The notes below the pieces were generated by a model, which made no database searches, was not told where the DNA came from, and saw only the letters and a list, made by a program, of their open reading frames with translations. DNA of 12,714 bases from Promethearchaeota archaeon (GTDB taxonomy: Archaea > Asgardarchaeota > Odinarchaeia > Odinarchaeales > JBHLKK01). Within the stretch, counting starts at the first letter, position 1. Every line of letters starts with the position of its first letter. The position numbers were made by a program, and so were the translations under genes. Of this stretch, positions 1 to 12,714 are shown piece after piece. The stretch spans positions 1 through 12,714 of the forward strand of contig JBHLPL010000054.1 in NCBI GenBank assembly GCA_048939465.1, in the 5' to 3' direction.

Positions 1-36
1 ACAGAAGATGAAGAGAATCCAAGAGACCTCTAAAAA

Positions 37-582
37 ATGTTCTCAGATTTCGTGGATGTCTTTGATCATATCGCATCATATTTAGCGTCTCAGCCGTCGC
101 ATCTAGAAGTAGATGATGTCCCAACTAAGGAGAAATTCAAACAGTTTCTCAAAAGATTCGAGGATGCTCAGCACTTATCTGATCTTTTGAAGGAATGGGT
201 TCAGTCGAGGCATAGATCGGTTAATCAATTGATAAGAATTCTGGATGTAATTGATGAGATGAAAGACGAATCTGAAGATTTACAGCGCAAGGTCGGCTTG
301 CTTGTTCTTCCGCTATTCAGGGAATTCATAAAATATCTAGAAATCAATAGGAAGAATTCCATCAAAATTCTTCAAGTTGCCTTTGATATCCGGAGGATAA
401 TTGATGATGTGACCTCCACCATTCAGAAGATAGAACTTGCGTTTAAGGCACTGGGCTACGATCTCCAATCAGAATCAGAAATTGAGAAATTCCTCGAGGG
501 ATTGAGAGGCGGGAAGCTGGAGGATGCAAAAATCTATCTTGTCAAAATCGTAGAGAGATCGAGGATTCTTCTGAAGAGCTAG
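37..582 (+). CDS. Hypothetical all-alpha-helical protein (181 aa); may be part of a longer, interrupted gene
   Basis: The ORF has amphipathic-helix composition rich in E/K/L/I and no recognisable motif. The same frame is open at 1-30 (TEDEENPRDL, TAA 31-33) and again at 583-630 after the TAG. Confidence 0.6.
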   Translation: MFSDFVDVFDHIASYLASQPSHLEVDDVPTKEKFKQFLKRFEDAQHLSDLLKEWVQSRHRSVNQLIRILDVIDEMKDESEDLQRKVGLLVLPLFREFIKYLEINRKNSIKILQVAFDIRRIIDDVTSTIQKIELAFKALGYDLQSESEIEKFLEGLRGGKLEDAKIYLVKIVERSRILLKS

Positions 583-661
583 AACTCGGAACCGAAACGC
601 CTTTTGCACAAGATTCTTGCCAAACAAGATTAGACTGAGCTGATAAGAACAACATCGTTGA

Positions 662-979
662 TTGCTCCTTTCTTTTGGCAAAGACAGCGGTACCTATACA
701 ACGAATTCTTCGACAACGCCCTTTGGCACCTTTAAGGCAATGTATGAGGGTCATAAGGATTCTGTATCTTCATTCAACGTTACCAGTCAAATGTACTTCA
801 TGACAATCGGTTTCACAAATTGGGATAGCTACAGCGTTGACAATGATCCAGAATTCGTTGTATTTCCTGAGACGTTCCAGGGAGTCGTTGGGGATTCAAT
901 GCTCTTTATCGCTATGGGAGCAGCAGGAGTCGTGGTATTAGTAGCTGCAGTACTGGTTGTAAAAAGAAGACGCATTTAA
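662..979 (+). pseudogene. C-terminal fragment of a membrane-anchored secreted/surface protein (probably 5'-truncated)
   Basis: It has a beta-rich, S/T/F-rich segment with an NVT sequon and a YFMTIGF..WDSYSVDNDPEF motif. A hydrophobic helix (MLFIAMGAAGVVVLVAAVLVV) and a KRRRI stop-transfer tail follow. There is no signal peptide or SD, and in-frame stops lie directly upstream (TGA 659-661, TGA TAA 641-646). Confidence 0.6.
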
Positions 980-994
980 CCCCCCCCTTTTTTT
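980..994 (+). terminator. Archaeal oligo-T terminator (C8T7)
   Basis: CCCCCCCCTTTTTTT starts immediately after the TAA at 977-979. Oligo-T tracts are the established archaeal intrinsic terminator. Confidence 0.6.
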
Positions 995-1010
995 ACCTTC
1001 CTCTCCGCAA

Positions 1011-1043
1011 GAAGACTCCATCCGGAAGGGTGGAGTAGTTTAC
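1011..1043 (+). repeat. Orphan copy of the IS200/IS605 right end (GAAG guide, hairpin, TAGTTTAC)
   Basis: GAAGACTCCATCCGGAAGGGTGGAGTAGTTTAC matches 2814-2845 (GAAGCCCCATCCTTTAGGGTGGAGTAGTTCAC) at 27/33 positions. The 14-mer AGGGTGGAGTAGTT is exact at 1027-1040 and 2829-2842. Confidence 0.85.
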
Positions 1044-1066
1044 CTACGCCGGTAGTAACCTTTGAC

Positions 1067-1115
1067 TTATTCGGTGGGAAGTCCCCCTCCGAAAGGTGGA
1101 GAGATAAAAGCCAAA
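1067..1115 (+). repeat. IS left end: imperfect hairpin with outer stem
   Basis: The inner hairpin is TCCCCCTCC-GAAA-GGTGGAGA (1082-1102, two mismatches and a bulge). TTCGGT (1069/70-1075) can pair imperfectly with GCCAAA (1110-1115) as an outer stem. Confidence 0.65.
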
Positions 1116-1126
1116 AGGCATTTATA
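1113..1126 (+). promoter_or_regulatory. Archaeal BRE/TATA promoter of tnpA (probably leaderless)
   Basis: Purine-rich AAAAGGCA is followed by TTTATA (1121-1126), about 24-29 nt upstream of the ATG at 1150. There is no SD. Confidence 0.55.
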
Positions 1127-1149
1127 GTTATAAACGAAGAATCATAACT

Positions 1150-1557
1150 ATGCGATATAAGCTAGATAAGTCATCACATTCGGTGCATGCGCTGCAATAT
1201 CATCTTGTTCAGTGCGTCAAACACAGGCGAGATGTACTGGATAGCAAAGAGATTGTAAACCTTCTCAAACAAAAGATACATGATATAAGTGCAACTTTTG
1301 AAGTGGGTGTGCTCAACATAGAATGTGACAAAGATTATTTTCATATGATTTTCAGAAGTAAACCTACTTTAGACATACCAAGATATATGAATGCCCTAAA
1401 AACCATCACCTCCCGAGAAATACAGCGCAATTTCCCAGCAGTCAAGGAAAAACTCTGGAAGGGAGCATTCTGGTCACGATCATATTTTTTGACTACCACA
1501 GGACAGGTCACTTTTGAACAGCTGAAGAAATACATTGAAAATCAGGGGATGAGATAA
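1150..1557 (+). CDS. tnpA: IS200/IS605 Y1 (HUH) transposase TnpA, probably inactive (HUH reads Y-F-H)
   Basis: It has the YHLVxCVKxRR, LWxGAFWSRSYF and KKYIENQ (catalytic Tyr128) motifs. The expected DHxH reads DYFH (codon TAT at 1336-1338). Its TAA overlaps the tnpB ATG (TAATG). Confidence 0.93.
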   Translation: MRYKLDKSSHSVHALQYHLVQCVKHRRDVLDSKEIVNLLKQKIHDISATFEVGVLNIECDKDYFHMIFRSKPTLDIPRYMNALKTITSREIQRNFPAVKEKLWKGAFWSRSYFLTTTGQVTFEQLKKYIENQGMR

Positions 1558-2840
1558 TGTACCTAACACAAAACATTAGGATTTTTCCTGCACCAGAACA
1601 AGAAGAGGTACTCTGGATACTCTCAGAGAAATGTAGACTTATCTATAATTTTGCGCTGGCTGAACGTAGGCACGCTTATAAAAACGGAATCAAGGGTATA
1701 GACTATACTAAACAGCAAAATGACCTCCCCTACATTAAAGAACAACACCCCGAATACAAATGGGTGCATTCCAAAGTCTTACAATCGGTTCTCAGAATAT
1801 TAGATGCCGATTATGCATCTTTCTCTGCTCTTCGAAAAAACGGACATACTATGGCTCGACATCCGTGCTTCAAAGGCAAGAAGTACTTTACCACTATGAT
1901 TTACAACCAGTCTGGGTTCAAAATCGACCACGGCAAAATCTCTTTTTCTCATAACTACGACGGAGTGTCACTGGAGTTTGTCATACCCGAAAAATTCTCG
2001 TTCATTAAAGATGCAGAAGTCAAGCAAATCGCCATTTTCAAGAAGCGTGAGAAGTATTTTGTGGGCATAACATATGAAGTCAAAGCCCCCACTTATGCAG
2101 ATAATGGTAGGTACCAAGCCATAGACTTGGGCATTACCAACATCGTAACCGCCGTAAATTCTGTGGGAAAATTCCTAGTGGTGAAAAATCGACGTCCAGA
2201 CAAATACTGGAATCCAAGAATCGCCAAGGTACAAGCGCGGAGGGACAGATGCAAGAAATATAGTCGAAGGTGGAACTTGTTCAACAGTATCAAACGAAGG
2301 TACGAATGGAAACGTGATAATCAGGTAAGGGATTTCCAGCACAAATTTAGCAAGAAGTTAGTAGAGAATACCAGGGCTAATACTATCATAGTGGGCGATC
2401 TTGAGGTCAAAACGATGCCCAAGTCAAATACAGTGCCGAAACCAATAAGGAAGGGGTTAAACCGTGCAACACAGAACACAGGTGCGATGGGACGGTTCGT
2501 ACAGTTTCTAGCCTACAAAGCCATGAAAGTAGGTAAAAGAATAATAGAATTTGACGAACGCAACTCGACCAAAGAGTGTTGCGTGTGTGGTAAACTCCAT
2601 TCCATGCCGATTTGGAAACGAGTTATGAAGTGTAATTGTGGTAACGTGATTGCAAGAGACAAGAACAGTTGTGTGGTGCTTATGAAGCGTTACTTATTAC
2701 AGAATGCCAAGTGGACAGGCTGTCAAGAATTTCTTGATAATCTGCGACACACAGCCGAAGGTAAAACGAAAGTACCCAATCCGTTTTTTGGATATGGTTC
2801 GGAGGACTCGCAGGAAGCCCCATCCTTTAGGGTGGAGTAG
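1557..2840 (+). CDS. tnpB: RNA-guided endonuclease TnpB (IS605 OrfB), rearranged-RuvC type
   Basis: The N-terminal HTH is IRIFPAPEQEEVL..CRLIYN. RuvC-I is AIDLG (D190), RuvC-II is IIVGDL (G280), followed by FDERNST (E334). The Zn finger is CCVC..CNC and RuvC-III is RDKN (D368). Confidence 0.95.
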   Translation: MYLTQNIRIFPAPEQEEVLWILSEKCRLIYNFALAERRHAYKNGIKGIDYTKQQNDLPYIKEQHPEYKWVHSKVLQSVLRILDADYASFSALRKNGHTMARHPCFKGKKYFTTMIYNQSGFKIDHGKISFSHNYDGVSLEFVIPEKFSFIKDAEVKQIAIFKKREKYFVGITYEVKAPTYADNGRYQAIDLGITNIVTAVNSVGKFLVVKNRRPDKYWNPRIAKVQARRDRCKKYSRRWNLFNSIKRRYEWKRDNQVRDFQHKFSKKLVENTRANTIIVGDLEVKTMPKSNTVPKPIRKGLNRATQNTGAMGRFVQFLAYKAMKVGKRIIEFDERNSTKECCVCGKLHSMPIWKRVMKCNCGNVIARDKNSCVVLMKRYLLQNAKWTGCQEFLDNLRHTAEGKTKVPNPFFGYGSEDSQEAPSFRVE

Positions 2841-2865
2841 TTCACGGAGTGAAAATATCTTAGAA
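2740..2865 (+). ncRNA. Predicted TnpB omegaRNA (reRNA): 3' part of the scaffold plus a flanking guide; true 5' end not determinable
   Basis: Nested stems: CTGCGA 2742-2747/TCGCAG 2808-2813; CCGAA 2755-2759/TTCGG 2798-2802; GT..AC-GAAA-GT-AC 2761-2775; CCAATCC 2776-2782/GGAT(A)TGG 2790-2797; right-end hairpin 2818-2837. The guide is inferred as the ~20 nt after TCAC (GGAGTGAAAATATCTTAGAA). Confidence 0.65.
2814..2845 (+). repeat. IS right end (guide GAAG, hairpin, cleavage site TCAC)
   Basis: The sequence is GAAG-CCCCATCC-TTTA-GGGTGGAG-TAGT-TCAC. The tnpB stop codon TAG (2838-2840) lies inside it. Confidence 0.85.
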
Positions 2866-2898
2866 TAGTTTAGTAACTTGTCGGTGGAGGCAGGATTC

Positions 2899-4989
2899 TT
2901 GCTCCGTAGTCTATATATATTCTCTAAGACCGGTGATACCCTTTTCACCAAATTCTTCGGGGAAGATATGATTGATGAACAGCTATTCTCGGGCTTTGTA
3001 AGTGCACTGTTCTCCCTGGCTCAGGAATTCGGGCATCGGGGCATGGAAATCATGAAAATGGATAATCTGAAGTTCTTTTACGATTTTACCGACAGACTGA
3101 TTTTTGCCATCTCGGCAGATGAAGGGGACGAAGAAATCGCTATTAAGAATCTATTGGCCACGATCCGCGATAGGTTTCTTGAAAGGTTCGGCAAGGTATT
3201 GACAGATTGGAGGGGTGGAGACGTATCCGCATTCAAGGATTTTGAAAGCGACGTCTGGGAGATTACGAAATACGGAATTCCTCCCGAAGGACTGAAACTG
3301 TTTTTGGCTCCTCCTTTCTCCTTTAACAGAAGAAAGTTGAAGAGCGCACGGACTGGGGCAAAGAATCTGGAAGCCGATGTAGACGTATCTCACTCTTTGG
3401 ATAGCGAAATCGCCACAATGTTTGCACTGGTTGAGGATAGGAGATTCAAAGGGAGTGGCTTTCTTAGAAAAAGGCCTGCAGAGACCATCGATTTTATCTC
3501 ACGCATTTTATGGCCTATTTGGTTTGTTAAGATTGATGAAGAGAGATTTATGCCTCTGGACGGCCTGTCCGGAGAAGATCTGTCGGTCCCAAGACTTGAT
3601 ATGAAAAATCTGGAGAATATTGAAAAGGCTATTAAGAAATTGTCTTTGGATGAATCTGTTGAGGGGCTGAGCGATATAGAAAAGAACTTAGCAAAGACTA
3701 TCGATGAGACTATCATTACAAAGGCACTCGTGAGCTTTGAGGTTTTGAAAGCAGTAAGAAAAGTGGCTCCTTATGCCAAATATCAGAGTCTAAATCTGAC
3801 TGCCGCAATTCGCCCCTCACTGTCCTTGAAAGAGGCACTTGGGATCGGTGATAATCTTAGAGAAACTCTGCGAAACACCAACACGATTGCTCTAAAGCTG
3901 GAAGAGGTTGCAAAGGCAGTAGACGAGGTCACTAACAGACTACTCAGTGAGATTGAGAGCGGTGTATCTTCTATTGAGGCGGATTACTCAGGCAAAATCG
4001 AAGAAGCCCAGAAGAAGGTCGACGCGAGAATCTCGGATATCGAGAAAAGGAAGATCCAGGAGCTTAGCCCAGTTGAGCAGTGGAGGGAGGAGGAGCGGAC
4101 AAGAATCGTTAACGAGTTCAGAGTCTTTCTGTTGCCACTAGAGCAGAGTTTTGCGAATCTTTACAATTTGATTAAGACACATTGTGAGAATTTATCGAAG
4201 ACTGAAGAAGTTCGGGCATTCCTTGACATTGTCAATGTTTCTTTTGACCAAGTAACTGAGGCCTTCAAGGAGTCTCAGGCAGTGCTGGACGAGATTAGGA
4301 TCAAAGCGGATCAGTATCTTGAGCAATTAAGAATGGTAGATGAAAGAACTGAAACCAGCAAGAGTCAGATAAACGACAAGTACGAAAACATGGTCAAGGA
4401 GCAAAGAAAGCAGCTATCAGTTTTCAAGGAAGAGAAGGAACGGATGCTGAAGGAGAAGGAGGCTCTCAGGCAATCCATAATCGAAAAGAAAGAAGCGATT
4501 CTTTCCAGAGTCTCTGAGATCAAAGAGAAGTCTCTGAGTGAGGAACATCGTCTCACAGGATTCCTTCTCGAGATCCCCGACCCGTTAAGGATTCAAAGGA
4601 TTTTTAGATTCCACATCCCTCTGTATGTGGCCAAGTATCTCGCTCCAAAGAATGAAACAAGGTATTTTGTGTCGTCTCCCTTGGTCTTTCCCGCTGGGAA
4701 AAATCTGAGGAGAGAATCTTATCTCGAGCAGACGATCCCTGTGGAACCGTTTGATGATGTACTGACAAGCCTGAACATAAATCTGGAAAAAATGATAAAC
4801 GAGAGAAAGAGACTTCAAAAAACCATTGATGCCTCGGCTAAGAAGAGCAACCTCCTTGACAAACCTAAAGTAAGATCCGTCATTGCCGAGGGACTCGATA
4901 AGTTCGAAAGGACCGAGCTGATTAACAGGAAGGATCTCTTGAGATTAAAGGAAGCTCTGGTAGAAGCATTCAGAAAAGGAACAGATTGA
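2899..4989 (+). CDS. Longin-domain / long coiled-coil fusion protein (Asgard-type eukaryotic signature domain); ~696 aa from TTG 2899, 703 aa from TTG 2878
   Basis: The N-terminal ~120 aa (LYIFSKTGDTLF..LFSGFVSALFSLAQEF..LIFAISAD..FLERF..WRGGDVSAFKDF) have the beta-beta-alpha-beta-beta-beta-alpha-alpha longin pattern. About 320 aa of E/K/L-rich heptad helix follow at 3590-4550. SD GGTGGAGG (2883-2890) sits 8 nt before TTG 2899. Confidence 0.8.
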   Translation: MLRSLYIFSKTGDTLFTKFFGEDMIDEQLFSGFVSALFSLAQEFGHRGMEIMKMDNLKFFYDFTDRLIFAISADEGDEEIAIKNLLATIRDRFLERFGKVLTDWRGGDVSAFKDFESDVWEITKYGIPPEGLKLFLAPPFSFNRRKLKSARTGAKNLEADVDVSHSLDSEIATMFALVEDRRFKGSGFLRKRPAETIDFISRILWPIWFVKIDEERFMPLDGLSGEDLSVPRLDMKNLENIEKAIKKLSLDESVEGLSDIEKNLAKTIDETIITKALVSFEVLKAVRKVAPYAKYQSLNLTAAIRPSLSLKEALGIGDNLRETLRNTNTIALKLEEVAKAVDEVTNRLLSEIESGVSSIEADYSGKIEEAQKKVDARISDIEKRKIQELSPVEQWREEERTRIVNEFRVFLLPLEQSFANLYNLIKTHCENLSKTEEVRAFLDIVNVSFDQVTEAFKESQAVLDEIRIKADQYLEQLRMVDERTETSKSQINDKYENMVKEQRKQLSVFKEEKERMLKEKEALRQSIIEKKEAILSRVSEIKEKSLSEEHRLTGFLLEIPDPLRIQRIFRFHIPLYVAKYLAPKNETRYFVSSPLVFPAGKNLRRESYLEQTIPVEPFDDVLTSLNINLEKMINERKRLQKTIDASAKKSNLLDKPKVRSVIAEGLDKFERTELINRKDLLRLKEALVEAFRKGTD

Positions 4990-4996
4990 GCTGCTA

Positions 4997-5317
4997 TCAT
5001 GTCGTGTATGTGCTCGTGGCTGGCTTCTTGTCTGGCATCCTACCTACTTTGATCTCTCCGTACTTCTTTTCAAATTCGCTGATGTTCTTGCCCAATGCCA
5101 TGAACAGCTGTTTGGCGGTTATCGGGGAAGTCTGTATTTCTACCTCGAATACGCGTTTTACTTCGCTTGGCGGTCGATCTACTTCTGTAAGCATGATCCT
5201 GTCATTGTAGAATGTTAAGCTGAAAACCACCGGATTGTGTGCCATAACTGCTCCCATGCTATAGATCTGGCGGAAGTCATCACTGTCGACTATTTTGATT
5301 TTAGGCTTAAAACTCAA
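4997..5317 (-). CDS. DUF3467 family protein
   Basis: The pattern IYSxG..AHN...FSLTF ... EIQTSPITAKQLFMALGKNISEFEKKYGEI matches the DUF3467 consensus as recalled. SD GGAGGTGA (complement of 5324-5331) sits 6 nt before the TTG. Confidence 0.8.
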   Translation of the reverse strand: MSFKPKIKIVDSDDFRQIYSMGAVMAHNPVVFSLTFYNDRIMLTEVDRPPSEVKRVFEVEIQTSPITAKQLFMALGKNISEFEKKYGEIKVGRMPDKKPATSTYTT

Positions 5318-5342
5318 AGATCTTCACCTCCCTACTCTCTAA

Positions 5343-7094
5343 CTATTTCGGCTTCGTCTTAAAAAATGTGGCGATTCCAATGACGAGTATTACGCCGGAT
5401 ACGGCGCCAAAAATCCAAACACTGGAGGACTCATAGGTGTTCTCCCGGACAACCACGGTGGAACCATCGGCAGCAACCGACACTATTACATGCTCTGCAC
5501 CGTCCCTACCGTAGAACAAACTGCCAATTTGGAATTCTCCTTCGTTCTCGTCTTCAAACACCCCGTCATTGTTTATATCGATTTTGATTGCATATCCGCC
5601 CGTGTCATTATAGACTCCATTACTGTTATTGTCTGCAAGTATGACCAGATAGTCCCCGTCTAGGAGGTTCAGGGTACCGTTATAGTACGTTTCGGAGAAT
5701 ATCCTCGCTCTCGAACCATTTCCGGCGAAATCTGTCCGATAAAGCCTTGTATCAATTGTCACGTTGCCATCTAGGGTTGCATTTTCCCCGCTCGCATAAC
5801 TGTTGTTCTGATCAGCATCAATATCAATATGATCGTATACTCCGTCCGAGTCTGCATCAACCAAGACATAATTTAGCTGTCCTGCTGTGTGAGTGAAGCC
5901 GCTTTCGAAGTATGAAAGTGCGGTTATGTTCGCTGAAAGAGCGTAATCCCAGGCGAAATTGAATGCACGGTCCAGCGATACGATGAAGTTGACGCTGGTC
6001 GTTATGAGCAACTCGTCTTGCGTGATATTCTGATCCCCGTTGAGGTCAAAGCACGAGACGTTGAAGACGTTGATTGAGTTATTATCGATGAATACTGCAT
6101 AAATGCTTTCATTTTCGATGGATACACCATCGCCATCCAGGTCAAGATTGAACGCTCTGTAGTGATAGTGTGCCATTATGGTGGCATTGTGGGTGACGTT
6201 TTCCCAGTAAAGCTCGAAGTAATAGCCATTCACTGTAATTGTTGTCTCCGTGCTGTTGAACTTCTCATAGGAATCAAAAGTGTTGTTCTTGTCCAAGTCG
6301 ATATCAATCTGATCGTATACGCCGTTACTGTCTAGATCAACCAGTGTGAAATTGAGGATTTCGAGTGTTTGGTCCTCATCCATATCGACCGAAAAGCCTC
6401 CGTCTCTATAATAGGAAAGGAGGCCGAGGTCCACATATACTGGATCGCCTCCTACCTGGCTTGCGTTCAGAATGAATACCGTGAAATTGTTATCCAAAAG
6501 GGTAACTACTCCTCTGTCAGGTATCGCTGTTGCATCTGACATATTATCGTCGCCATTGAAATCGATATAAACGGTATCCCACACATAATCGCTGTCGTTA
6601 TCATCTATGCCGAACCACAGACTTTGAGTCTGACCTAGAGAAGCATTCACCAGAACCTCTATTTGGCCCCACGTTCCATTATTGAGGGTGGGAGAATCTG
6701 ATACCAAAGGATTGACCGCGAGATTGAAATACGTATCTCCGATTTGCTGGGTACGATTTGTGGCACCGGTCAGGGTTGCGTTAACCAAGGCTGTGGTCTG
6801 ACTCTGGTTGTTAGGTTGCGGTGTGTTATTGACAGGAGAAGTTAGACCGTGATCAAAGTCTGCCCCCGCTTGCGGATCTACCTGGGTGAGAGGGGGGATC
6901 GCCAGTTGCGTTATGGTACGCAGAATGGGCTGACTTGAGAGCGGCGAGTTTGCAGGCGACCCTTCGGGCTCAGAGGTTGTTGCTGTAAGGCTGGTGCTGT
7001 ACTGGGCTGCGCTAACGCCTGATATGAAGAGTGATAGCATTAGGATAGCTGCCAGACTTGTCATTACGAAATGTTGTTTTAGTATTCTTATCAT
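5343..7094 (-). CDS. Membrane-anchored cell-surface glycoprotein with five ~80-aa Dx[DN]xDG-type (putative Ca2+-binding) repeats; ~583 aa from ATG 7094, 595 aa from GTG 7130
   Basis: It has a Sec-type signal peptide (MIRILKQHFVMTSLAAILMLSLFISGVSA-A) and a P/S/T/Q-rich linker. The repeated motif is LVD.DS.GVYD.IDID.D.NN, and there are about 27 N-x-S/T sequons. The C-terminus has a TM helix and a KTKPK tail. SD GGAGG (complement of 7102-7106) sits 7 nt before ATG 7094. Confidence 0.85.
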   Translation of the reverse strand: MIRILKQHFVMTSLAAILMLSLFISGVSAAQYSTSLTATTSEPEGSPANSPLSSQPILRTITQLAIPPLTQVDPQAGADFDHGLTSPVNNTPQPNNQSQTTALVNATLTGATNRTQQIGDTYFNLAVNPLVSDSPTLNNGTWGQIEVLVNASLGQTQSLWFGIDDNDSDYVWDTVYIDFNGDDNMSDATAIPDRGVVTLLDNNFTVFILNASQVGGDPVYVDLGLLSYYRDGGFSVDMDEDQTLEILNFTLVDLDSNGVYDQIDIDLDKNNTFDSYEKFNSTETTITVNGYYFELYWENVTHNATIMAHYHYRAFNLDLDGDGVSIENESIYAVFIDNNSINVFNVSCFDLNGDQNITQDELLITTSVNFIVSLDRAFNFAWDYALSANITALSYFESGFTHTAGQLNYVLVDADSDGVYDHIDIDADQNNSYASGENATLDGNVTIDTRLYRTDFAGNGSRARIFSETYYNGTLNLLDGDYLVILADNNSNGVYNDTGGYAIKIDINNDGVFEDENEGEFQIGSLFYGRDGAEHVIVSVAADGSTVVVRENTYESSSVWIFGAVSGVILVIGIATFFKTKPK

Positions 7095-7264
7095 CTCTGG
7101 CCCTCCGCTGGCTTCTCCTTTAATTGCCACTTACTAATTAATCTTTTTGATTTGTGATAGAAGAAGGGATTAAATCCGAAAGCCGAACCCAGATTTTAGT
7201 CGATAGTTAAATATAGTTACACATAGTAATATACGAACAAGGCCGGGTTGGTCTGAAATTAGAC

Positions 7265-8002
7265 TTGCATTTGGAAGGGCAGAAATTGAAGCTTTCCATA
7301 ATAATGCCAGCCTACAATGAAGAGAAAAGAATTGAGGGGGCCATCAAGAGGACCGAACGCACCCTGGACCAACTTGGCGTAGACTATGAGGTCATAGTAG
7401 TTGATGATGGAAGCCATGACAATACCTTTGAAAAGGCACACAAGACAGCCAGAAGAAGCAACAACGATCACATAAAGATCATAGGATACGAGAAGAATCA
7501 CGGAAAGGGAAATGCCTTAAAATATGGAGCTATGCACGCAACAGGCGATATTATAATCTTTTTGGATAGTGACTTAGAAATTCCACCGGAGCAGATTAAG
7601 AGATACCTTAGGTTACTGAAACGTGGGGACATACTAATTCCATCGAAGAAGCATCCAAGGTCCAAAGTTGATTCACCACTGATTCGAAGGGTCTTAGGAA
7701 GGGTCTTTAACATATTAGTACGATTTTTGATTGGCCTCAAATATAGGGACACGCAAAGCGGGCTAAAGGCATTGAAGGCTAATGTTCTAAGAAAAGTGAT
7801 GCCAAAACTAACCATTGACCGATATGCTTTCGATGTTGAACTTCTGACTGTGGCAGATTTGTATGGATTCAAAGCTATCGAGCTGCCAATTTCCGTCAAG
7901 ATGAATGGAATGATTAAGATAAAAGAAATCATCAGGATGTTTCATGATCTTCTTGAAATAGCTTACAGACATAAAATTCTTAACTGGTATGATGGAAATT
8001 AA
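7265..8002 (+). CDS. GT2 glycosyltransferase, DPM1/GtrB-like (probable polyprenyl-phosphate sugar synthase)
   Basis: The motifs are SIIMPAYNEE, VVDDGSHD, GKGNAL, FLDSDL (DxD), DTQSGLK and FDVELL. The 245-aa length fits the DPM1-like subgroup. Confidence 0.9.
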   Translation: MHLEGQKLKLSIIMPAYNEEKRIEGAIKRTERTLDQLGVDYEVIVVDDGSHDNTFEKAHKTARRSNNDHIKIIGYEKNHGKGNALKYGAMHATGDIIIFLDSDLEIPPEQIKRYLRLLKRGDILIPSKKHPRSKVDSPLIRRVLGRVFNILVRFLIGLKYRDTQSGLKALKANVLRKVMPKLTIDRYAFDVELLTVADLYGFKAIELPISVKMNGMIKIKEIIRMFHDLLEIAYRHKILNWYDGN

Positions 8003-8189
8003 AGGCACAGAAATTAGAACATAAGTTCCAATGTTCCCAACACAGATTCTTTTGATTCTGTTTGTGAGGAAATTGAAGAAAAAACAATATTATACTCGTT
8101 TTGCATATCAATCAATGAACCTTCGGTTATATTACAGTAGCTGACTACGTTATACTATTATCAATGAGTATCATAATCGGGTAACTGCG

Positions 8190-9299
8190 ATGGTTAAACT
8201 TAAGATCCTCATATTTAACTGGAGATGCTGGCTCAATCCCGCAGCGGGTGGTGCGGAGGTTTTTACACATGAATGTGCCAAAAGGTTCGTAAAAGCAGGC
8301 AATGAAGTTACCCTCTTCACCTCAAAATACCCTGGCTGTGAGAATGAAGAAAACCTAGAAGGAATAGAAGTAATCCGAGCCGGAGGTAAGTATACTGTAT
8401 ACTTCAGAGCGAAGCAATACTACAAGAAACGTTTCAAAGGCAGATATGATATCCTAGTGGATGAGATTAACACTCGCCCGTTCATGACTGCTAAGTTTGC
8501 AAAGGGAGAAAAAATAGTTGCGCTAATCCATCAGCTAGCGCGGGAGTACTGGTATTATGAAACTCCATTTCCCATCTCCATAGTGGGAAGGTATTTTCTG
8601 GAAGACTATTGGCTCAGAAGATATAAGAATATACCCACAGTAACTGTCTCCGAAAGCACAAAGGATGACCTAGAAAAACTGGGGTTCAAAAGAATCTTCA
8701 TAGTTCCGGAAGGACTAAACATTAAACCTCTAACCAAAGTACCTAGCAAAAACTCTGAACCTACAGTAATCTATGTAGGAAGGCTTAGAAAGGTGAAACA
8801 ACCCAATCACGCCTTAGATTCCTTCAGAATCGTTAGAAAACGGATACCTAACGCTAGACTATGGATAGTGGGAGATGGTCCCCTAAAAGAAAAGCTAGAA
8901 ATGAAAGCATTCGACGGAGTAAAAATATATGGAAGAGTTCCTAAGGAAAAGAAAACGGAACTCCTGAAGAAGGCCCATCTTTTGGTTTTTCCCGGAATAA
9001 GAGAGGGGTGGGGACTAACAGTAATCGAGGCTGCCTCACAAGGAACCCCAACCATTGCATATAATGTTTCTGGACTAAAAGACTCAGTAAGGCATATGGA
9101 AACAGGCATACTGACGCCGCCCAACCAGATAAACAAACTGGCAGAAGCTGTGATTCAACTAATAAACAATAAAGGATTACTCCATAAACTGTCAGAAAAC
9201 GCACTCAAACATAGCAAAAACTTCAATTGGAACGAAACATCAGAGAATTTAATGAAAATAATAGATGCCACCGTTAACGATGGTCTGGCATTAGAATGA
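8190..9299 (+). CDS. GT4 (GT-B fold) glycosyltransferase
   Basis: The motifs are NWRxxxNPxAGGAE, YVGRLRKVKQ, IVGDGP, EGWGLTVIEA (E-x7-E) and GLKDSVRHMETG. Confidence 0.92.
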   Translation: MVKLKILIFNWRCWLNPAAGGAEVFTHECAKRFVKAGNEVTLFTSKYPGCENEENLEGIEVIRAGGKYTVYFRAKQYYKKRFKGRYDILVDEINTRPFMTAKFAKGEKIVALIHQLAREYWYYETPFPISIVGRYFLEDYWLRRYKNIPTVTVSESTKDDLEKLGFKRIFIVPEGLNIKPLTKVPSKNSEPTVIYVGRLRKVKQPNHALDSFRIVRKRIPNARLWIVGDGPLKEKLEMKAFDGVKIYGRVPKEKKTELLKKAHLLVFPGIREGWGLTVIEAASQGTPTIAYNVSGLKDSVRHMETGILTPPNQINKLAEAVIQLINNKGLLHKLSENALKHSKNFNWNETSENLMKIIDATVNDGLALE

Positions 9300-9332
9300 A
9301 CCCTTTGTATTATTTGATTGAGGATTGGTCAC

Positions 9333-10238
9333 ATGTTAGAGGTTTGCATAGGGATCCCTGTATACAATGAGGCTGGTAACATATATTCGCTATGTGTTTC
9401 TCTACTCAACCAGAAAGGAGATGGTTGGAGGATAAAGAGAATCATAGTCGTCAATGATGGATCAACAGACGACACACTGAATAGAATTAAGTACTTTGAA
9501 AAAGGATTTTCTGGAACACTCCTAGCTCGCAAAATCAAGCTAGAAATTATAAGCTTGGAGCAGAATATAGGAAAAGCTAACGCTTTGAATATTATATTTG
9601 AAAAAGCTCGAACAAGTGTATTAGTGCTGCTTGATTCGGATGTTGTTTTATGTAATCCTTCTACTATAGATACGCTATTGAAGGGCTTTGAAAATTCTAG
9701 CATTGGATTAGTTGGAGGATGGTCTACTATCCACATCTCCTCCAAAATTGGCTTTGTTGAAAGAGCCATGAGGTTCTCTGTGAATTTCTTGGAGAAAGCA
9801 GGCTACTATGGAAATAATATACTCTGTGCATGGGGAGGCCTAATGGCTATAGCCAGAGACATTTACAAAAGGATAGAACTGCCCACAGCGTTAATGAGAA
9901 TTGATGCGTTCTTGTATCTTTGCACAATGAAACTGGGCAAAAGATTTAGATTCATACCTTCTGCCAAAGTGGTTGTAAAATTGGCAAAAAAGAACCCTTA
10001 CTGGTTTATTAAGATCCAAAGAAGGGTCAGAAGATTTCCACGGGCATTTAGACACTGCTTTTCAGGAATTTTGGAGGAGGAATATTCATCAATACCGATT
10101 TCCACACTAGTCAAAAGAATCATTTCACAATTTCTGGAATCTCCATTAGATGGGTTATTTTACATTACCGCTAAACTCATGTCTTCTATAATAAATAGTT
10201 TGTTTAATATTCAGATATCTCATAGATGGAGAAGTTAA
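9333..10238 (+). CDS. GT2 (GT-A fold) glycosyltransferase (alternative start TTG 9318)
   Basis: The motifs are IGIPVYNE, VNDGSTDDT, GKANALN, LLDSDV and WGGLMA. GAGGA at 9320-9324 precedes ATG 9333. Confidence 0.88.
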   Translation: MLEVCIGIPVYNEAGNIYSLCVSLLNQKGDGWRIKRIIVVNDGSTDDTLNRIKYFEKGFSGTLLARKIKLEIISLEQNIGKANALNIIFEKARTSVLVLLDSDVVLCNPSTIDTLLKGFENSSIGLVGGWSTIHISSKIGFVERAMRFSVNFLEKAGYYGNNILCAWGGLMAIARDIYKRIELPTALMRIDAFLYLCTMKLGKRFRFIPSAKVVVKLAKKNPYWFIKIQRRVRRFPRAFRHCFSGILEEEYSSIPISTLVKRIISQFLESPLDGLFYITAKLMSSIINSLFNIQISHRWRS

Positions 10239-10263
10239 GATTTGAGATGGAGAATTAATAGCA

Positions 10264-10992
10264 GTGAAAGACAAAAACAAAATCTATCAGAAAGGCTGGC
10301 AGAAGAATTGGTTTAATCAATGTTATTCCTCTCGAAAAAAACCACATAAACTTGATCATTTCTATGATTTGTCTCGCGTAATCCTAATGTACAAGCATTC
10401 CCCCCCTCAAGGGCTAATATTGGATGTCGGGGCTGGAGAATGTAAAATATCCTCAGTATTGAGCAGAGTATTAGGCAAGAAAGTCAAAATCGTTGCCCTG
10501 GACTTCTCATCAACTGGTTTATCTAAATGTAAACATCGTGGATTTAGGGGATGCTTAATTATGGGAGATTGCCACAATTTGCCATTCAGAACGGATGTGT
10601 TCGATACGATCTCATGCTTGGAAGTTATTGAGCATGTTGGTTCTCCCAAACTTCTTATTAGATCCATCAGGAGAGCACTAAAAGAAAATGGCACTTTGAT
10701 ACTAACAACACCCAACGGAAACCGTATTATACGAATTATGGGGAGATTACTATATAGAGACATAAAGATTGACTACTCTCACATTCACGAATTCTCAATC
10801 AAGGAAATTGCTGGAATACTCCATAAAGAAAAGTTGAAAATAGTTAATTCAATAGGGCTTTCGTTTGACGTACCCTATCCTATCTTAGTTCGAATGCCCG
10901 ATTCAATAATAAGGATTCTGTTGACATTGATGAAAAGAAAGACCCCTTTGGTCTTTTTTAAATTCCTAGGGGTAATATCGAAGAAAATATAA
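10264..10992 (+). CDS. Class I SAM-dependent methyltransferase (glycan-cluster type)
   Basis: The motifs are ILDVGAGE (motif I), ALDFS, GDCHNLPF, FDTISCLEVIEHV and LKENGTLILTTPN. Confidence 0.9.
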   Translation: MKDKNKIYQKGWQKNWFNQCYSSRKKPHKLDHFYDLSRVILMYKHSPPQGLILDVGAGECKISSVLSRVLGKKVKIVALDFSSTGLSKCKHRGFRGCLIMGDCHNLPFRTDVFDTISCLEVIEHVGSPKLLIRSIRRALKENGTLILTTPNGNRIIRIMGRLLYRDIKIDYSHIHEFSIKEIAGILHKEKLKIVNSIGLSFDVPYPILVRMPDSIIRILLTLMKRKTPLVFFKFLGVISKKI

Positions 10993-11083
10993 GAGCAATT
11001 GCCAAATCCAATCAACAACTAAATCTACGAATATTAATATCATTTAACATTTCTATGCAGCTAAGGATGCTGGTGACAGAAAA

Positions 11084-12714
11084 TTGGTCCTCAAGGTAAG
11101 ACAAATACATGTATCCCTAATCTTCGTATTTGCCGCGTCCATCACTGTCTTATTAGTAGGAGATGGTTTCATCGGGGATTCAAATCAGTGGATTTTGAAT
11201 CCGCTGGAGAGATTGGAGAACATTTTCTACATATGGGATTCGCGTGTGCTTACTGGCGTATATGACCCGAGAGCAATTACATATATCTTCTTATTCCTGT
11301 TTTATGGTTCTTTTTCCATCCTCGGCATTCCAATTATAATAACACAACGGCTGTGGCTTGTACTTGTATTATCGTTCGTCGGATTGAGTATGTATGAATT
11401 ATACTCTTATATTTCCAATACGAAAAAAACAATTCCGGCGATAATAGCTGGATTATTCTATATGTTTAACCCATATACCTTAATGTTCCTTCATGGTCAA
11501 GCAAGTATATTTCTGTTAGCTTATGGCGCATTACCGTTAACACTGTATTTATACCTTAAGGGTATGGATAAGAAGCAGTATAGATATGCCCTATTAACAG
11601 GTTTAGTTTTCGTAATAACCAGTGGTTGCGGGGATCCTCCGCTGGTATTCATTAACGCAACCGCATTAGTAACGCTATGGCTATATTATTTCTTGACAAA
11701 GAAAGATATCAAATATCAAATTAAGTTCAACGCATTATTGACAGCGTGCGCAGTAATCTCCAACCTTTGGTGGATTTTGCCTGCAGCATACTATCTATTC
11801 GGAGAATGGACAACGGCCCTTTCAACTCTTTACGACAATATAGTGTGGACCAATTCTTATTCAAGCTTTCTTGAAATTCTACGATTACTGGGAGTTCCGA
11901 AGCTATATGAATATTCCGGGAAGTATGTCTCATTTTCAGATTATTACACGTCAGACTCTGTTACTGCTATAACGACTTTAGCCATACCTATCTTGAGTTT
12001 TTCTAGCTTGCTATTCAAGAAGCGTAACAAATATACTCTATATTTCTCAATCTTGCTGATCCTGGGAATCATACTGGCTGTAGGTGTGTACCCGCCTTGG
12101 GATCCTTACCTTACGGGAGAGGTATTCTTCTGGTTTTATAACAATTTCCCATTCTTCAGGATATTTAGAAATACGTATAAGTTTGCAACATTAATTTGCC
12201 TATCCAGTGGAATAATGTTGGCGTTTACTTCAGAGAATATTATAATTAAAGAACATAATCTCAGGATCTTTAAAAATAAGAAATTCTTAAAGCCGTTGTT
12301 TATTTTCTTAACTGTTGGCTTAATATTTGTAAATGCATTACCTATGATTTCAGGAAACATCTATGAACAGAATAGAAAAGTTGCGATTCCTGATTACTAC
12401 TATCAAGCAGCAGATTGGCTGGGATCAGATTCTGAGGCCTATAGAATATACAAACTTCCGTGGCAGAATTTCCCTATATTTAACTGGGGAGATCCAAGAT
12501 TCGACCCCCCGATTTTTCTTTTTGACAAGCCATTGATCTATCATTCTATTGTCCCATTTGGTTCACAGTATTTATCAGATTTGATTGATCTGAGTTACTT
12601 CGTATTTCATCAAAATCAAACAGAAGATTTCGGAAGACTGATCGGATTGATGGGCGTCAAATATGTTTTGCATGCCAAAGATGCCGATTGGGAAATCTAT
12701 GATAAAGACCCCCC
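11084..12714 (+). CDS. Large polytopic membrane protein, GT-C-like (DUF3367/AftD- or YfhO-like) glycosyltransferase; 3'-partial, >=543 aa
   Basis: Manual translation shows an uninterrupted frame from TTG 11084 to the window end, with SD GGTGA at 11072-11076. Sequence landmarks: MVLKVRQIHVSLIFVFAASITVLLVGDGFIGDSNQW..AGLFYMFNPY..YGALPL..NLWWILP..FPFFRIFRNTYKF..IPDYYYQAADWL..GVKYVLHAKD. It has many hydrophobic helices, followed by a soluble domain. Confidence 0.8.
   Translation, partial: MVLKVRQIHVSLIFVFAASITVLLVGDGFIGDSNQWILNPLERLENIFYIWDSRVLTGVYDPRAITYIFLFLFYGSFSILGIPIIITQRLWLVLVLSFVGLSMYELYSYISNTKKTIPAIIAGLFYMFNPYTLMFLHGQASIFLLAYGALPLTLYLYLKGMDKKQYRYALLTGLVFVITSGCGDPPLVFINATALVTLWLYYFLTKKDIKYQIKFNALLTACAVISNLWWILPAAYYLFGEWTTALSTLYDNIVWTNSYSSFLEILRLLGVPKLYEYSGKYVSFSDYYTSDSVTAITTLAIPILSFSSLLFKKRNKYTLYFSILLILGIILAVGVYPPWDPYLTGEVFFWFYNNFPFFRIFRNTYKFATLICLSSGIMLAFTSENIIIKEHNLRIFKNKKFLKPLFIFLTVGLIFVNALPMISGNIYEQNRKVAIPDYYYQAADWLGSDSEAYRIYKLPWQNFPIFNWGDPRFDPPIFLFDKPLIYHSIVPFGSQYLSDLIDLSYFVFHQNQTEDFGRLIGLMGVKYVLHAKDADWEIYDKDP

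Follow-up and report, generated by a model that had tools for sequence, protein, structure and literature searches.

A probable relocated RuvC-II glutamate in the TnpB of a complete IS200/IS605 element from a Promethearchaeota genome

TnpB proteins in which the glutamate of the second RuvC motif (RuvC-II) has changed its position have been described under different names. Jiang et al. (2023, PMC10530073) named the arrangement ‘TnpB2’ and found an archaeal IS605 representative, TvTnpB from Thermoplasma volcanium (with E323 as the glutamate), to be an active nuclease guided by omega-RNA; its transposon-adjacent motif (TAM) is NTGAC, and it acts without collateral cleavage. Yoon et al. (2023, PMC10711439) described an Ealt clade with a D-Phi-G and a DPG sub-clade, and a fingerprint of the Fanzors that combines DPG and Ealt and is linked to a TnpA of the IS607 type. 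Altae-Tran et al. (2023, PMC10691335) distinguished RIIr branches, the largest of which, RIIr-5, has replaced the glutamate by glycine and carries a compensating glutamate; a glutamate after strand beta-5 in place of the one after strand beta-4 was described for both RIIr-5 and RuvX. Replacement of this residue in ApmFanzor (E467A) abolished cleavage (PMC10530073), and the structure of Fanzor2 shows a triad of Asp324, Glu467, and Asp501, in which Glu467 lies approximately 50 residues off the canonical position (PMC11832414). Here, we describe a tnpB gene on contig JBHLPL010000054.1 of the Promethearchaeota assembly GCA_048939465.1, of which the forward strand from position 1 to 12,714 was analyzed (12,714 nt, referred to as the window).

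The window TnpB is a member of the published class with a rearranged RuvC-II site (TnpB2, Ealt with D-Phi-G, or RIIr), and its gene is carried by a complete IS200/IS605 element at positions 1067–2845. We are highly confident that the region 2124–2660, which extends exactly from D190 to D368 according to residue mapping, codes for the RuvC core of an intact TnpB nuclease with a relocated RuvC-II glutamate and the triad D190-E334-D368. Direct observations cover the residues with their family-wide conservation and covariation, the homology to residues of proven catalytic function, the boundaries of the element, and the covariation of its RNA. RNA-guided nuclease activity of the protein is very likely, by analogy with characterized relatives. 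An earlier note on this DNA had pointed out D190 and D368, a glycine in VGDL (G280) instead of the usual glutamate, and E334 in FDERNST 54 residues further on; translation and residue mapping reproduced each of these exactly. Its statement that the exchange of Gly and Glu defines the rearranged TnpBs, is common to Fanzors, and is found in active enzymes agrees with the literature (PMC10530073, PMC11832414, PMC10691335, PMC10711439). The coordinates of all features are summarized in Table 1.

Table 1. Positions of the genes, key residues, and predicted DNA and RNA features of the element and its surroundings in the window.
Feature	Position	Strand	Basis and remarks
RE-like mini-element (RE, right end), ~47 nt, two hairpins	996..1043	+	Outside the insertion sequence, 23 nt upstream of its left end
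TAM TTGAC	1062..1066	+	Directly 5' of the left end
Left end (LE), subterminal hairpin region GGGAAGTCCCCCTCCGAAAGGTGGAG	1067..1149	+	Kept in L017, L018, L096, and the Borrarchaeum and Methanosarcina copies
tnpA, Y1 (HUH) transposase, 135 aa	1150..1557	+	Pfam Y1_Tnp, E = 4.9e-37
tnpB, RNA-guided nuclease (by analogy), 427 aa	1557..2840	+	Translation; Pfam domains HTH_OrfB, OrfB_IS605 (RuvC), TNB zinc-ribbon
D190, RuvC-I Asp (AIDLG; DLG motif)	2124..2126	+	End of strand 186-190; invariant, 120/120 homologues
G280 (VGDLE), canonical RuvC-II Glu position	2394..2396	+	End of strand 276-280; Gly in 119/120 homologues
E334 (FDERNST), alternative RuvC-II Glu	2556..2558	+	2 residues past strand 328-332; Glu in 118/120 homologues
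Zinc finger C341, C344, C359, C361	2577..2642	+	Second knuckle CxC, not CxxC
Predicted omega-RNA scaffold, including the right-end hairpin	2640..2845	+	Overlaps the 3' end of tnpB; ends ...GTAGTTCAC
D368, RuvC-III Asp (ARDKN)	2658..2660	+	Start of helix 367-383; Asp in 118/120 homologues
Putative guide segment, first ~20 nt of the right flank	2846..2865	+	Right-end boundary and TnpB paradigm

The domains PF12323, PF01385, and PF07282 (TNB, Cas12f1-like) were detected in this order, each above the Pfam gathering cut-off. The protein is of full length and has kept all catalytic and zinc-binding residues, and E334 is located six residues ahead of C341-x-x-C344. At positions conserved to at least 90%, it departs from its relatives at four sites (Y71H, L264F, T319A, and S381L), none of which is catalytic. 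Judged from its sequence, the gene looks intact, and by analogy with the characterized enzymes this copy is probably active.

The assignment of the catalytic positions is based on alignments to proteins of known structure and to a canonical TnpB from the same genome. In a HMMER search against all chains of the Protein Data Bank (PDB), D190 aligned with D191 of ISDra2 TnpB, and G280-D-L aligned with V-E-D-L of 9yyg, a canonical nuclease of the TnpB type. Over its C-terminal half, the protein aligned to the mimivirus Fanzor2 9b0l, which placed E334 on Glu467 and D368 on Asp501; D368 also aligned with the RuvC-III aspartate of ISDra2. The only other TnpB in the genome, P0125 (C2:26102-27181), is canonical, with VFENL, VNPRGTTQ, and a CxxC second knuckle. 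Its identity to the window TnpB is 30% in the BLASTP alignment and 32% in the genome search. In BLASTP, VFENL is paired with IIVGDL, so that its glutamate falls on G280, and VNPRGTTQ is paired with FDERNSTK, so that its proline falls on E334. As P0125 is canonical and the window TnpB is rearranged, both active-site arrangements coexist in one Asgard genome.

Conservation was assessed in an alignment of the window TnpB (P0001) with its 119 best homologues (120 rows). All four positions of interest are conserved (Table 1). Positions 281 (D, E, A, K, N, or Q) and 283 (N, E, S, D, A, or Q), on the other hand, are variable, which argues that the acidic residues next to G280 are under no catalytic constraint. 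These positions matter for the proposal that D281 or E283 provides the third carboxylate and that E334 is incidental, since VGDLE does offer a pair of acidic residues no more than three positions away from the canonical one. However, neither of them is conserved among the homologues that have kept E334 in 118 of 120 cases, and the aspartate in the canonical E-D-L is widespread without being catalytic (VEDL in 9yyg, FENL in P0125). We regard this proposal as extremely unlikely; as substitute catalytic residues, D281 and E283 were rejected for their lack of conservation.

The exchange of the two residues was followed further in an alignment of 327 proteins, consisting of the TnpB family, 98 representatives collected by exhaustive scanning with HMMER, 113 Fanzor2-like proteins, and P0125. 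Glycine or proline in column 280 was found together with glutamate in column 334 in 264 proteins, and glutamate in column 280 together with a residue other than glutamate in column 334 in 59. Glutamate in both columns never occurred; three proteins had it in neither, and one row was gapped. The pattern is not accidental. To explain it, only three state changes are needed on the FastTree phylogeny (327 rows) and two on the IQ-TREE phylogeny (76 rows). The RuvC-I motif is DLG in 112 of the 115 family rows. None of the TnpB groups examined lacked the CxC form of the second zinc knuckle, and 13 of 56 canonical (Ecan) representatives have it; it therefore carries no phylogenetic signal and is not diagnostic.

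An AlphaFold2 model of TnpB was obtained from a 46-sequence alignment with a mean predicted local distance difference test (pLDDT) score of 82.5. In this model, D190 and G280 each close a strand, E334 follows shortly after a third one, and D368 opens a helix (Table 1). The modelled placement matches the geometry of an RNase H fold, in which a glutamate after beta-5 would be able to replace the one after beta-4. The best structural match was ISDra2 TnpB 8h1j (Z 24.9, root-mean-square deviation 5.5 Å, 350 aligned residues), and the comparison with ApmFz2 gave a Z of 19.0. The TnpB/Cas12f fold was also matched by Foldseek (E = 2e-18).

The boundaries of the element were determined by comparison with related loci. 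In the closest relative, L096, whose TnpB is 80% identical, similarity sets in straight after TTAAC, the counterpart of TTGAC in the window. Eight Borrarchaeum and six Methanosarcina copies diverge just 5' of a TTTAAC or TTTACC that is invariant at the same place. The similarity boundary in L096 and in the multi-copy genomes thus identifies TTGAC as the TAM position. TTGAC had already been predicted as TAM from the sequence, and the prediction fits both the relatives, whose left boundary is mostly marked by TTAAC or TTTAAC, and the TAM measured for TvTnpB, NTGAC, with which the window motif agrees. The loci L017 and L018 (Borrarchaeum weybense / yapensis) share both flanks and were of no help for the left boundary, which was set by L096 and the multi-copy genomes. 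The left end can form a hairpin at the DNA level (fold z = -2.2). The right end is sharp: in eleven copies and in L096, similarity ends exactly after ...GTAGTTCAC at 2845, five bases beyond the stop codon of tnpB. The hairpins of the left and the right end resemble each other, and both are conserved among relatives; the motif on the left side is TTGAC, and the last bases of the right end are TTCAC.

As a separate observation, the 10 nt located 3' of the right end in the orthologous copies L017 and L018 (ATAGACTTGG) repeat the 10 nt across the left boundary (ATAGAC/TTGG, the slash marking the boundary). Such a duplication is unexpected from the insertion of an IS200/IS605 element.

Over the last ~200 nt of tnpB, DNA conservation is far above the level expected from protein identity. 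The consensus fold of the region contains 45 pairs, seven of which show compensatory changes (RNAalifold, 10 copies). This conserved and covarying 3' end is predicted to be the expected scaffold of the omega-RNA. No omega-RNA family of Rfam matched positions 900–3000, where only two chance matches to long non-coding RNAs were returned (E 0.12 and 0.95). The 18-mer 2846–2863 at the start of the putative guide is unique in the genome. No second site for it was found there, and matches with three mismatches were at the level of a reversed-pattern control. With no further guide site in the genome, there is no sign of a host-gene target beyond the element's own flank, and the uniqueness of the guide fits the standard role, the cutting of the empty donor site.

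Taken together, these features suggest the following mode of action. The RuvC-II glutamate would have moved from the end of beta-4, now Gly280, to the loop just past beta-5, now Glu334. By analogy with characterized relatives, TnpB would bind an omega-RNA transcribed from approximately 2640–2845 plus about 20 nt of the right flank. The specificity of the nuclease, judged from the left-boundary motif and from TvTnpB, would be for a TTGAC-type TAM, next to which the complex would cut DNA matching the guide, that is, the empty donor site left by excision. Cutting of the donor site may help the element to persist.

The nearest TnpBs, with identities of 70–80%, were found in Borrarchaeum, Sifarchaeum, and other Promethearchaeota. 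At 50–60% identity, the family comprises proteins from Hod-, Wukong-, Hermod-, and Odinarchaeota within the Asgard archaea and, among other archaea, from Methanosarcina, Methanoperedens, Methanoculleus, Thermoplasmata, Bathyarchaeota, and DPANN. It is also present in some bacteria (Pedobacter, WOR-3, Actinomycetota, and the candidate phyla radiation). Several genomes carry multiple copies, with seven loci in Borrarchaeum weybense, five in B. yapensis, and five near-identical ones in Methanosarcina hadiensis, and a Y1 tnpA gene lies directly upstream at 25 of 80 family loci. The copy numbers and the linkage to tnpA show that the family is mobile in other genomes.

Some findings weigh against an intact element with an active nuclease. 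Codon 63 of tnpA is TAT (1336–1338), so that Tyr63 replaces the first histidine of the HUH motif; the window has DYFHM, compared with DHFHM in 8/8 relatives including L096. The catalytic Tyr128 is present (KKYIENQ). Because of His63Tyr, this copy of the element may be unable to transpose, or the change may be an assembly or sequencing error. The window tnpA is the only tnpA in the assembly, and the element is single-copy in a genome that is 91% complete; no second copy was found, a copy number that is unreliable in a metagenome-assembled genome (MAG) of 152 contigs. In the structure model, the loop 285–307 that follows G280 is weakly modelled (pLDDT about 50), and the position of E334 in space was deduced from the topology and from homology to solved and mutated relatives. 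One could go further and propose that the change from Glu to Gly at RuvC-II killed the nuclease and that the protein is a dead, possibly exapted, RNA-guided DNA binder. The missing canonical glutamate, the altered HUH motif of tnpA, and the single copy of the element would all suit this proposal, and inactivated TnpB branches do exist (PMC10691335). We nevertheless consider it very improbable. D190, E334, and D368 are kept in 118–120 of 120 homologues, the Gly/Glu pair covaries over 327 proteins, and the same arrangement was proven active in ApmFanzor2 and TvTnpB (PMC10530073). Moreover, the family is multi-copy and tnpA-linked in other genomes. The interpretation as an intact TnpB with E334 as the relocated glutamate is preferred.

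The earlier note had regarded the finding of such a protein in an Asgard genome as relevant to the routes by which TnpB reached eukaryotes, and had added that the signature also occurs in other archaeal TnpBs and does not by itself show Fanzor ancestry. This caution was the correct reading. The stronger proposal would be that an Asgard TnpB lineage is specifically related or ancestral to the eukaryotic Fanzors and marks a route into eukaryotes through an archaeal host. It is encouraged by the Asgard host and by the Ealt arrangement itself, which is common to Fanzor2 and puts E334 on E467. Like the Fanzor2 ApmFz2 (9b0l), the window TnpB has a relocated glutamate, a glycine at the canonical site, and the same overall fold. 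Fanzors and pro-Fanzors, however, have DPG in RuvC-I (PMC10711439), an IS607 serine recombinase as partner, and, in Fanzor2, an N-terminal extension, whereas the window TnpB has DLG, is encoded next to a Y1 TnpA, and lacks the extension. The combination of DLG, Ealt, and Y1 TnpA places it in the D-Phi-G/Ealt group and not among the pro-Fanzors.

For phylogenetic analysis, a Megavirus Fanzor2 gene was identified by a motif scan of viral contigs and used to gather 120 Fanzor2-like proteins, among which are proteins from mamavirus, Cotonvirus, and Megavirus courdo11. A tree of 76 rows was calculated with IQ-TREE (LG+C20, posterior mean site frequency model); this set is without the named cyanobacterial pro-Fanzors. 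The window TnpB was placed in a tip clade with 100% support together with P0003, P0004, P0012, P0017, and P0030. This Asgard tip clade is nested several supported nodes deep inside a clade that unites 31 Ealt rows with 95% support, within a family that spans methanogens, Thermoplasmata, Bathyarchaeota, DPANN, and bacteria. The 23 Fanzor2-like rows formed their own clade with 100% support, and the stem leading to it is long (1.29 substitutions per site). The clade of the window TnpB is separate from the Fanzor2-like clade in this tree. The deeper part was less clear: the Ealt super-family of the window, the Fanzor2-like clade, and two Ecan rows meet at one unresolved node, and a forced union of the Asgard tip clade with the Fanzor2 clade was rejected only marginally in the approximately unbiased (AU) test (difference in log-likelihood 36.6, p-AU 0.049; LG+G4, 44 rows). 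Both of these results would speak in favor of a link to Fanzors. We attribute the marginal rejection to the long Fanzor2 stem. The trees bear on the lineage of the window TnpB and not on the placement of Fanzors, whose published position this set cannot reproduce.

The proteins were also scored with a core-Fanzor2 profile. Median scores were 57 bits for the Asgard subclade, 68 bits for the rest of the family, and 66 bits for canonical TnpBs; P0001 scored 60 bits and the canonical P0125 from the same genome 89 bits. The window TnpB shows no sign of a special affinity to Fanzors and is no more Fanzor2-like than canonical TnpBs. In addition, according to published phylogenies, Fanzors stem from IS607 TnpBs of cyanobacteria (PMC10711439). 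A specific relationship of the Asgard lineage to Fanzors is accordingly judged most unlikely, and the suggested relevance of the Asgard setting to the entry of TnpB into eukaryotes did not hold in view of DLG, the Y1 TnpA, the nested tip clade, and the absence of an excess in the Fanzor2 profile. Equally faint is the chance that the relocated glutamate arose only once and that the archaeal, Y1-associated family is the immediate sister of the Fanzor2/pro-Fanzor stem. If this were true, an archaeal reservoir, possibly in Asgard hosts, would have contributed the ancestor of Fanzors, and not cyanobacterial IS607 elements alone.

Two observations were made on the Fanzor2-like sequences themselves. 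The giant-virus Fanzor2 homologue L095:418-1896 has DLG and not DPG in RuvC-I, and a CxC second knuckle. Among the 113 Fanzor2-like proteins, much of which are metagenomic, RuvC-I is DLG in 64 and DPG in 34, so that DPG is not universal in this set. The CxC knuckle was considered as a derived trait common to the window TnpB and the giant-virus Fanzor2 and was ruled out, as CxC occurs in every group.

The mini-element upstream of the left end has the consensus CTTCYTCTCCGCAAGAAGACTCCATCCGAAAGGGTGGAGTAGTTCAC and about 19 further copies in the genome (contigs C73, C141, C5, C68, C88, C23, C77, C16, C137, and others). All of these follow a TTTAT or TTTAC (TTTAY), and most end with GTAGTTCAC, the same as the right end of the insertion sequence. 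The fold of its hairpins has a z of -2.1. Three copies (L003, L010, and L012) have a different 3' part. The mini-element looks like a non-autonomous derivative that resembles palindrome-associated or miniature inverted-repeat transposable elements (PATE/MITE-like) and could be mobilized by the TnpA of this family.

Directly 3' of the right end, a non-mobile gene at 2878–4989 encodes a protein of 703 aa with a weak N-terminal match to the small chain of clathrin adaptors (longin-type, E = 1e-4). The putative TnpB guide falls upstream of this gene. Three homologues of the protein were found among 5.8 billion proteins, and the only named one is from a Hodarchaeota MAG (72% identity). The assignment to a probable Asgard genome, which had been made without knowledge of the origin of the DNA, is borne out by this homologue and by the nearest TnpBs from Borrarchaeum and other Promethearchaeota.

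Beyond a correct annotation, the finding has little weight; it adds one intact, probably active member to a TnpB class that is described and abundant, and it is no evidence on the entry of TnpB into eukaryotes. As compact tools for genome editing that were reported without collateral cleavage, TnpBs with a relocated glutamate deserve some interest. Borr- and Hod-type Asgard archaea commonly carry such elements, which are mobile there. For the mobility of the element in this genome, the exchange His63Tyr in tnpA and the mini-elements of 47 nt provide small leads.

In comparison with known systems, the window TnpB shares with the RuvC-II-rearranged TnpBs the glycine at the canonical glutamate position, a glutamate six residues ahead of the zinc finger, and a RuvC-I motif of the type D-hydrophobic-G. 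Its second knuckle is C-x-C (C359 and C361), and the family therefore escapes the published regular expression, CxxC...CxxC, with which Ealt TnpBs were counted. The TvTnpB group, for which TvTnpB was compared by its description, is similar in the IS605 Y1 TnpA, the archaeal host, a TGAC-type left motif, and an omega-RNA at the right end. ISDra2 TnpB (8h1j, 8exa), a canonical TnpB1, resembles the window TnpB in domain order, fold, Y1 TnpA, TAM, and omega-RNA. In contrast to the window TnpB, to which it is ~21–23% identical, it has the canonical RuvC-II glutamate, Glu278, and a Pro-type VxPxxTS where the window has E334. ISDra2 also cleaves collateral single-stranded DNA, an activity that the rearranged enzymes are reported to lack (PMC10530073).

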